This document shows, in pieces, positions 7,937 through 8,238 of a DNA stretch of 64,000 nt (positions are counted from its first letter, which is position 1; every line of letters starts with the position of its first letter). This stretch comes from a phage: the sequence record PZ476263.1; one strand, given 5' to 3'. The position numbers and the translations under genes are program-made. A model generated the notes under the pieces. That model worked only from the letters and a program-made list of their open reading frames with translations, ran no database searches and was not told the DNA's origin.

Positions 7937-8238
7937 GGCAGATATTCCTTTATGGATTTCACTGCTTCAGTTTTATCTTTCGTATTTTTGTAGTAGGTAC
8001 GGCACTGTGCAAGACTAGCACACATTGTTACGGTATACCAGAAGAACAAACCTATTCGTTTTTGTAATCCCCAAGTAACTTTCCTTCCTACAAATACATG
8101 ATCATATTCGATTTTTACTATCCGATATCTATTCAAAAATCTATTCAGGAATCTATTCATAACTCCCCCATTATATCTAAAACTACAGGAATCATAAACA
8201 ACACCAAAATGGTCCCCCATGTAAGGTATGCGTACCAA
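7933..8238 (-). CDS. hypothetical protein with NRFLNRFLNRY repeat
   Basis: ORF track, 101 aa; contains three copies of the DNA word atctattca (8126-8159). Confidence 0.35.
   Translation of the reverse strand: MVRIPYMGDHFGVVYDSCSFRYNGGVMNRFLNRFLNRYRIVKIEYDHVFVGRKVTWGLQKRIGLFFWYTVTMCASLAQCRTYYKNTKDKTEAVKSIKEYLP

Follow-up and report, generated by a model that had tools for sequence, protein, structure and literature searches.

The repeat described here lies at the 5′ end of a gene of 75 codons for a small phage protein (7933..8160, minus strand), within a stretch of 64,000 nt of phage DNA (record PZ476263.1) that was analysed over its whole length and is called the window below. The extent of the gene follows from an alignment of homologues, the N-termini of its family, a test of the coding frame and the predicted structure of the product. 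It belongs to a tightly packed chain of small genes (62, 39, 44, 75, 66 and 87 aa) and, like the genes between roughly 2 and 48.6 kb, is read from the minus strand. Directly upstream, a gene of 44 codons (8157..8291, minus strand; product MKNPNREWENCDYLLWPDWYAYLTWGTILVLFMIPVVLDIMGEL, MKNPNREW...IPVVLDIMGEL) was recognized by its substitution pattern against a metagenomic relative and encodes a protein with a hydrophobic C-terminal half; it is preceded by a gene of 39 codons (8293..8412, minus strand), whose product has a hydrophobic C-terminus. The latter is a conserved upstream neighbor. In the Escherichia phages A73 and UPEC06 it directly precedes the repeat-bearing gene, and the 44-aa gene is not found at this position there or in Septuagintavirus phages. 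Downstream follows a gene of 66 codons (7736..7936, minus strand), which shares an ATGA (7936-7933) with the 75-aa gene, its own ATG overlapping the TGA of the latter. At the other end of the 75-aa gene, where the minus strand reads ...GATATAATGGGGGAGTTATGAATAGATTCCTGAATAGATTTTTGAATAGATATCGGATAGTA..., ATG 8160-8158 overlaps the upstream TGA 8159-8157, again as ATGA. Homologues from Pectobacterium phages show the same start-stop overlap. A start that overlaps in this way with the stop of a preceding gene, itself truly coding, is a feature of coupled overlapping genes, and the small genes of the chain are probably translationally coupled. A sequence resembling a Shine-Dalgarno site, GGGGGAG (8163..8169, minus strand), precedes the ATG at a distance of 2 nt and varies among relatives, being GGGGTAG and GGGGAAG in two metagenomic relatives (L005 and L126, respectively) and missing from A73. 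A TATAAT at 8177-8172 was considered as a promoter and rejected; a −35 partner is lacking, and relatives have GATAAT in its place.

The initial annotation had placed the repeat in an open reading frame of 101 codons, 7933..8238 (minus strand), opening with TTG at 8238. This mechanically derived frame is 26 codons too long. The surplus, 8161..8238 (minus strand), belongs in fact to the 44-aa gene, whose 3′ portion it represents in a different frame, and tblastn matches to GenBank phages are confined to residues 38-96 of the 101-aa translation. The comparison with L005, a metagenomic relative 93% identical to the window, is instructive: within 8157-8291, the codon differences in the frame of the 44-aa gene are 7 synonymous and 4 non-synonymous, as opposed to 0 synonymous and 10 non-synonymous in the 101-aa frame; the upstream extension is therefore not coding in that frame. 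The gene most likely starts at ATG 8160-8158. Public gene calls are affected as well. Metagenome gene callers start at an ATG at 8220, giving 95 aa, and the deposited proteins P0001, P0002, P0047, and P0048 are 20 codons too long (95/91 instead of 75/71 aa); the overlapping 44-aa gene was missed in the calls on the related public contigs (L004, L005, L125, and L126). Correction of this annotation, that is, of the start 20 codons too early and of the missed gene, is the main practical value of the analysis.

The word ATCTATTCA on the plus strand, TGAATAGAT on the minus strand, occurs exactly at 8127-8135, 8139-8147, and 8151-8159, and these are its sole exact matches on either strand of the 64 kb. 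The initial annotation had correctly seen three copies within 34 bp, albeit starting one base too early, at 8126; its description as a tandem 9-bp word has to be replaced, since the period is 12 bp, made up of a 9-bp core that is the same in each copy and a spacer of 3 bp that varies. Tandem Repeats Finder likewise reports an array at 8127-8159 with a period of 12, 2.8 copies and a score of 52. The expected number of matches to TGAATAGAT in the whole window is 0.88, and three matches anywhere were obtained in 3 of 100 shuffles; three copies at an exact spacing of 12 bp within 33 bp are not due to chance. That the tract is a duplication is concluded from homology among the relatives described below. 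Matches with one mismatch are present at chance frequency (26 in the window, 28 ± 5.6 expected). Read in the frame of the gene, the tract is an array of three 12-nt units (8125..8160, minus strand) forming codons 1-12: unit 1, ATGAATAGATTC (8160-8149; ATG AAT AGA TTC), encodes MNRF; unit 2, CTGAATAGATTT (8148-8137; CTG AAT AGA TTT), encodes LNRF; and unit 3, TTGAATAGATAT (8136-8125; TTG AAT AGA TAT), encodes LNRY, the identical cores being 8159-8151, 8147-8139, and 8135-8127. The peptide NRFLNRFLNRY and its frame had therefore been given correctly, and the repeat is indeed coding, but it constitutes the first 12 codons and not an internal stretch of the gene.

Other repeats were encountered around the tract or in searches with it. 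The doubled word TGAATAGATNNNTGAATAGAT has 89 matches in IMG/VR; it was dismissed as a dispersed motif, none of the 89 loci encoding a family member, and the matches are unrelated repeats or chance occurrences. An exact direct repeat of 15 nt, ACCAGAAGAACAAAC, is found at 8037-8051 and 8300-8314, 263 nt apart, in different reading frames of two neighboring small genes; it is probably fortuitous, and the copy within the 75-aa gene differs by one base in L004 and L005. Neither this repeat nor an imperfect one of 19 nt near the tract was accepted as a mark of the duplication, because spacings and frames differ.

The portal protein (56430-57962) is 91% identical to those of the Escherichia phages A73, W70, A7_1, A5-4, UPEC06, and LTH01, and 79% identical to Certrevirus portals. 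Megablast of 7400-8950 against GenBank phages gave no match, and blastn of the region gave only a match of 150 bp, in six Septuagintavirus-like phages. By these comparisons the window is assigned to an E. coli phage of the Vequintavirinae, related to, yet distinct from, Septuagintavirus, which is a proposed genus (PMC11370258). It fits the published description of the E. coli phage Jab, for which approximately 34% nucleotide identity to Septuagintavirus, a similarity of capsid and terminase above 90%, and a terminase listed as two ORFs are given (PMC13538427).

Several further features of the window deserve mention. A full-length group I intron (RF00028; 54986..55290, plus strand; 78.7 bits, E = 2.5e-18 with Rfam) lies between the ORFs 54148..54825 and 55293..56420; as the ORF just downstream of it matches only positions 113-212 of Terminase_6N, together with Terminase_6C, the large terminase gene appears to be split by the intron. 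A tRNA cluster at 50967..52824 (plus strand) comprises, according to ARAGORN, Met(CAT), Tyr(GTA), Gly(TCC), Gln(TTG), and Pro(TGG); a sixth, weak match at 50967-51045 (35.8 bits with Rfam) was not called by ARAGORN. The first of the RCC1/WD40_RLD-like genes (6222..7429, minus strand) consists of ORFs of 101 and 328 aa in different frames, while the same gene is a single ORF of 402 aa in L004; the break lies at approximately 7124..7134 (minus strand) at a C5 run, GCATTCCCCCTTTAG, the window being one base shorter overall, and could be a real frameshift or pseudogene, or a homopolymer sequencing error. At 62592..63988 (plus strand), overlapping tandem arrays of 9, 18, and 27 bp consist of units of the GGTCCACAA type (GGN NNN NNN), which suggests collagen-like Gly-X-Y repeats in a structural gene, probably for a fiber, that reaches the end of the window. 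Finally, an AT-rich tandem repeat of 31 bp (48766..48836, plus strand; 2.3 copies, score 103) is located in the divergent intergenic region, at about 48.6-49 kb, in which both the orientation of the genes and the GC skew change over; the repeat could be associated with a promoter or an origin.

The 75-aa protein has 46 relatives, with E values from 1e-32 to 3e-8, in a profile search of 5.8 billion proteins, and further loci of the family were retrieved from IMG/VR, JGI metagenomes, and GTDB genomes. Members have about 65-70 residues and share the pattern YRI..E(Y/W)....TYA(L/V)QKR(I/V)GFF(F/W)W.T..C(D/E)S..Q, which in the window protein reads YRIV..EYDH..TYALQKRIGFFFWYT..CDS..Q; R13, Q33, and W41 are invariant across the family alignment. 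The phages carrying the family include Certrevirus, Kagunavirus, Jerseyvirus, and other enterobacterial phages, and tblastn finds the Certrevirus and Septuagintavirus genes with E = 3e-14. The protein has no match in Pfam and no relative by sequence in the PDB, and at E ≤ 0.001 it matches none of the PHROG profiles. Since 29 of 45 aligned relatives do match phrog_2010 (“unknown function”; best E 3.9e-17), the window protein is placed in a family of the phrog_2010 type by transitive homology only.

A structure predicted with AlphaFold2 from the alignment of 45 sequences (mean pLDDT 82, pTM 0.62) contains a helix at residues 3-9, then three strands (12-21, 25-35, and 41-47) and a second helix (50-60); its core begins at residue 12, and residues 1-10 have a mean pLDDT of only 57. 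A model from the single sequence, all-helical and poor (pLDDT 63), was dropped in favor of the alignment-based one. Foldseek gave no match to the PDB at E ≤ 0.001, and in BFVD only uncharacterized phage proteins, among them the homologue from Salmonella phage BPS11Q3 (E = 7e-5, TM 0.58-0.62), indicating a shared predicted fold. In the extension encoded by the repeat, two polar residues alternate with two hydrophobic ones with a period of four, and for residues 1-12 a helical hydrophobic moment of 0.79 was obtained, a value exceeded by 2% of shuffles. The extension is modeled, at low confidence, as an amphipathic helix ahead of a confidently predicted β-β-β-α core.

The number of units differs among relatives. 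About 45 members of the family begin with M(M)KNYRI, MSKYRI/MSKYRV, MKLRI, or similar sequences and thus have one unit. Three units are seen exclusively in the clade of the window phage, which includes the Septuagintavirus/UPEC06 group; none of the further loci from IMG/VR, JGI metagenomes, or GTDB genomes belongs to this clade. In the subclade of the window, the window itself, L004, and L126 have MNRF LNRF LNRY, while L005 has MNTL LNRF LNRY (ATGAATACACTT TTGAATAGATTC TTGAATAGATAC), that is, three units of which the first is decayed. The first unit is likewise decayed in A73, A7_1/A5-4, UPEC06, LTH01, and two Logan contigs of the Septuagintavirus/UPEC06 group, which have M[I/L/F]KF MNRF VNRY (ATGATTAAGTTC ATGAATAGATTT GTGAATAGATAC). 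Outside the clade, the ancestral 5′ end is ATG AAA AAT TAC CGN ATH; compared with the family, the sequences of the clade are longer here by an insertion of exactly 24 nt, corresponding to two units. An NTG codon opens every unit in all clade sequences, which is what a duplication that took in the start codon should produce.

A single variant departs from this pattern. In L125, from the Logan assembly of SRR18573369 and a member of the window subclade, the protein (P0047) begins with MNRF LNRY (ATGAATAGATTC CTGAATAGATAT) and has two units; the gap is clean, 12 nt long and flanked by the repeat, the frame is kept and the protein is intact. L125 shares substitutions with the three-unit L126 in an alignment of five sequences, and its two-unit state looks like a loss. 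The allele is known from this one short-read assembly; its junction, GATTCCTGAATAGATATCGG, is absent from the three-unit allele, and a de Bruijn assembler could presumably have derived it only from reads. Altogether, 11 of the 12 sampled clade members keep three units, and more than three were never seen. The units are arranged head to tail, in the reading frame and with a length that is a multiple of three, and relatives differ by whole units (one, two, or three), as is the case for coding repeats of the slippage type. The initial annotation had proposed a slippage-prone tract and recommended that copy number be compared among relatives, invariance being what would speak against it. Copy number is not invariant, L125 having one unit fewer, and the proposal is borne out by the one unit outside the clade, three within it and two in L125; it holds in a modest form only, though, with three copies, a unit that is a multiple of three, and all but one of the sampled clade members unchanged.

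Selection on the units was estimated from Nei-Gojobori-type counts for the window against A73 and against L005. Against A73, units 2 and 3 have a pN of 0.10 versus 0.31 for the rest of the gene. For unit 1, pN is 0.19-0.30. At the level of the protein, units 2 and 3 are therefore at least as constrained as the core, and unit 1 is not and evolves freely. Synonymous changes in units 2 and 3 are at or above background when L005 is compared (3 of 4.3 sites; 0.33 elsewhere), and below it when A73 is compared (1 of 4.2 sites; 0.59 elsewhere), the number of sites being too small for significance. The 9-nt cores of units 2 and 3 do not vary within the clade, A73 included, whose DNA is only about 75% identical across the 75-aa gene. 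From the observed rates, the probability of finding no change in the cores, which hold only some 3-4 synonymous sites, is estimated at P ~0.07 and is not significant; the invariant cores may leave room for a constraint on the nucleotides, yet they are not evidence for a function at that level.

In all probability, the first 12 nt of the gene were triplicated in tandem and in frame by an event of the slippage type, and the tract is an ordinary coding repeat without a function as DNA or RNA. Replication slippage or unequal recombination would have triplicated the start codon together with the three codons following it, most likely in the ancestor that this phage shares with the Septuagintavirus/UPEC06 group. 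Eight residues, two units of the NRF[L/V] type, would thereby have been added ahead of the ancestral M-K-N-Y-R-I, giving the product a short appendage, probably an amphipathic helix, before the β-β-β-α core. The repeat may persist because the extension is tolerated, with units 2 and 3 under mild selection as protein, and whole units may still be gained or lost occasionally, as from three to two in L125. Translation would start at ATG 8160, probably coupled to that of the 44-aa gene via the ATGA overlap. As the tract is short and in frame, it cannot provide an on/off switch; each unit gained or lost alters the length of the N-terminus by four residues. The tract thus appears to offer a small, clean case of a 5′-terminal duplication that included the start codon and was followed by drift, with decay of one unit and loss of another. 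Should the extension prove to tune the activity of this early protein, the tract would hold a modest interest for phage biologists.

Explanations that assign the tract a role beyond that of a coding repeat were weighed against this triplication. It is improbable, for instance, that the in-frame NTG codons form a ladder of starts which, together with TGA and TAG stops in the other two frames, was selected for robust termination-reinitiation after the upstream gene. This idea draws on the NTG opening every clade unit (ATG/CTG/TTG here, ATG/ATG/GTG in A73), on the overlap of the gene start with the upstream stop as ATGA, on the Shine-Dalgarno site, which is weak or, as in A73, absent and is not conserved, and on a core that from residue 12 onward would be intact from any of the three starts. 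However, the NTG codons are accounted for by the hydrophobic residue (L, M, or V) to be expected at that position of the helix, CTG is a poor initiation codon, a single start with the same ATGA overlap is the norm among family members, and out-of-frame stops arise automatically when one word is repeated. A broader version, in which the tract is a selected, evolvable module at the start of an early gene, gain and loss of whole units (1, 2, or 3) tuning the length of an amphipathic N-terminal helix in contact with a host target or membrane while the ladder and the out-of-frame stops secure reinitiation, is a shade less probable again; if it were true, the tract would be a small phage-side contingency device that works without frameshifting. 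It is very unlikely that a hairpin in the mRNA hides the Shine-Dalgarno site and the AUG until the upstream gene is translated. In the minimum free energy and centroid folds of 8210-8090 (minus strand), UGUUUAUGAUUCCU from the 3′ end of the upstream ORF is indeed paired with GGGGAGUUAUGAAUA, a segment containing the Shine-Dalgarno site, the AUG, and unit 1. The energy of this fold is ordinary, though (z = -0.90; equalled or bettered by 41 of 200 shuffles), L005 has changes at two stem positions (G to T, T to C) that are not compensated, unit 1 is the only unit to participate, and in A73 the upstream arm is missing altogether, so that the hairpin cannot form there. Rfam gave no match in the region of the tract.

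The initial annotation had also suggested an embedded protein-binding site. That the three direct repeats are such a DNA site, resembling an operator or iterons and embedded in the 5′ end of the gene, finds some appeal in three identical 9-mers at regular spacing and in the cores of units 2 and 3 being invariant in all clade members, but is highly improbable. The 64 kb contain no further copies, and neither exact nor one-mismatch matches (26 against 28 expected) are enriched elsewhere. Outside the clade the word is absent from all family members, despite the same gene order and the same ATGA coupling; within it, unit 1 decays freely and L125 has lost a whole unit. There is no detectable excess of conservation at synonymous sites, changes in units 2 and 3 being at the background rate between the window and L005. 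Further, the tract is codons 1-12 of a gene and not a promoter or origin, no promoter-like or terminator-like site was called at it, and a spacing of 12 bp does not fit the helical repeat of DNA. As to chance similarity, or a sequencing or assembly artifact in a non-coding stretch, the tract is short and AT-rich and the 101-aa ORF first cited for it is partly spurious; this reading has practically no probability left and is refuted by conservation, as the same three-unit structure recurs in independent isolates and metagenomes from several countries and lies in a conserved reading frame of a gene family.

With iterons and direct-repeat operators, then, the tract shares three identical words at regular spacing. 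It differs in being coding and not intergenic, in having no other copies in the window, in its phasing of 12 bp instead of about 11 or 22 bp, in not being conserved outside the clade, and in that no associated Rep or regulator gene was identified; neither a location in a non-coding origin or promoter nor recurrence or conservation independent of coding, by which such sites are recognized, is found. Phase-variable contingency loci of bacteria and some phages resemble it as 5′-terminal tandem repeats with a polymorphic copy number. Here, in contrast, the 12-nt unit never shifts the frame and there is no on/off switching, the tract is not long, and one variant was seen among twelve clade sequences; the hallmarks of such loci, that is, a toggle of frame or promoter spacing and a long tract of many units, are both lacking. 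The closest likeness is to in-frame coding tandem repeats, VNTR-like minisatellites that arise by replication slippage or unequal recombination, which also consist of short head-to-tail units with a length that is a multiple of three, gain or lose whole units between close relatives (three versus two here), have an outer unit that decays progressively, and lengthen or shorten a part of the peptide that lies outside the folded core. The tract differs from these in having three copies only, for which reason its instability should be low, and in a unit that includes the start codon, which puts the repeat at the extreme N-terminus. Nothing here suggests a new kind of system. Compared with the phrog_2010 proteins of Certrevirus, Kagunavirus, Jerseyvirus, and other phages (~66 aa), the window protein has the same core (YRI..E....TYA.QKR.GFFFW.T..C.S..Q), the same predicted β-β-β-α fold, and a gene in a similar run of small, tightly packed genes, and it is set apart by its repeated N-terminal extension of 8 residues.
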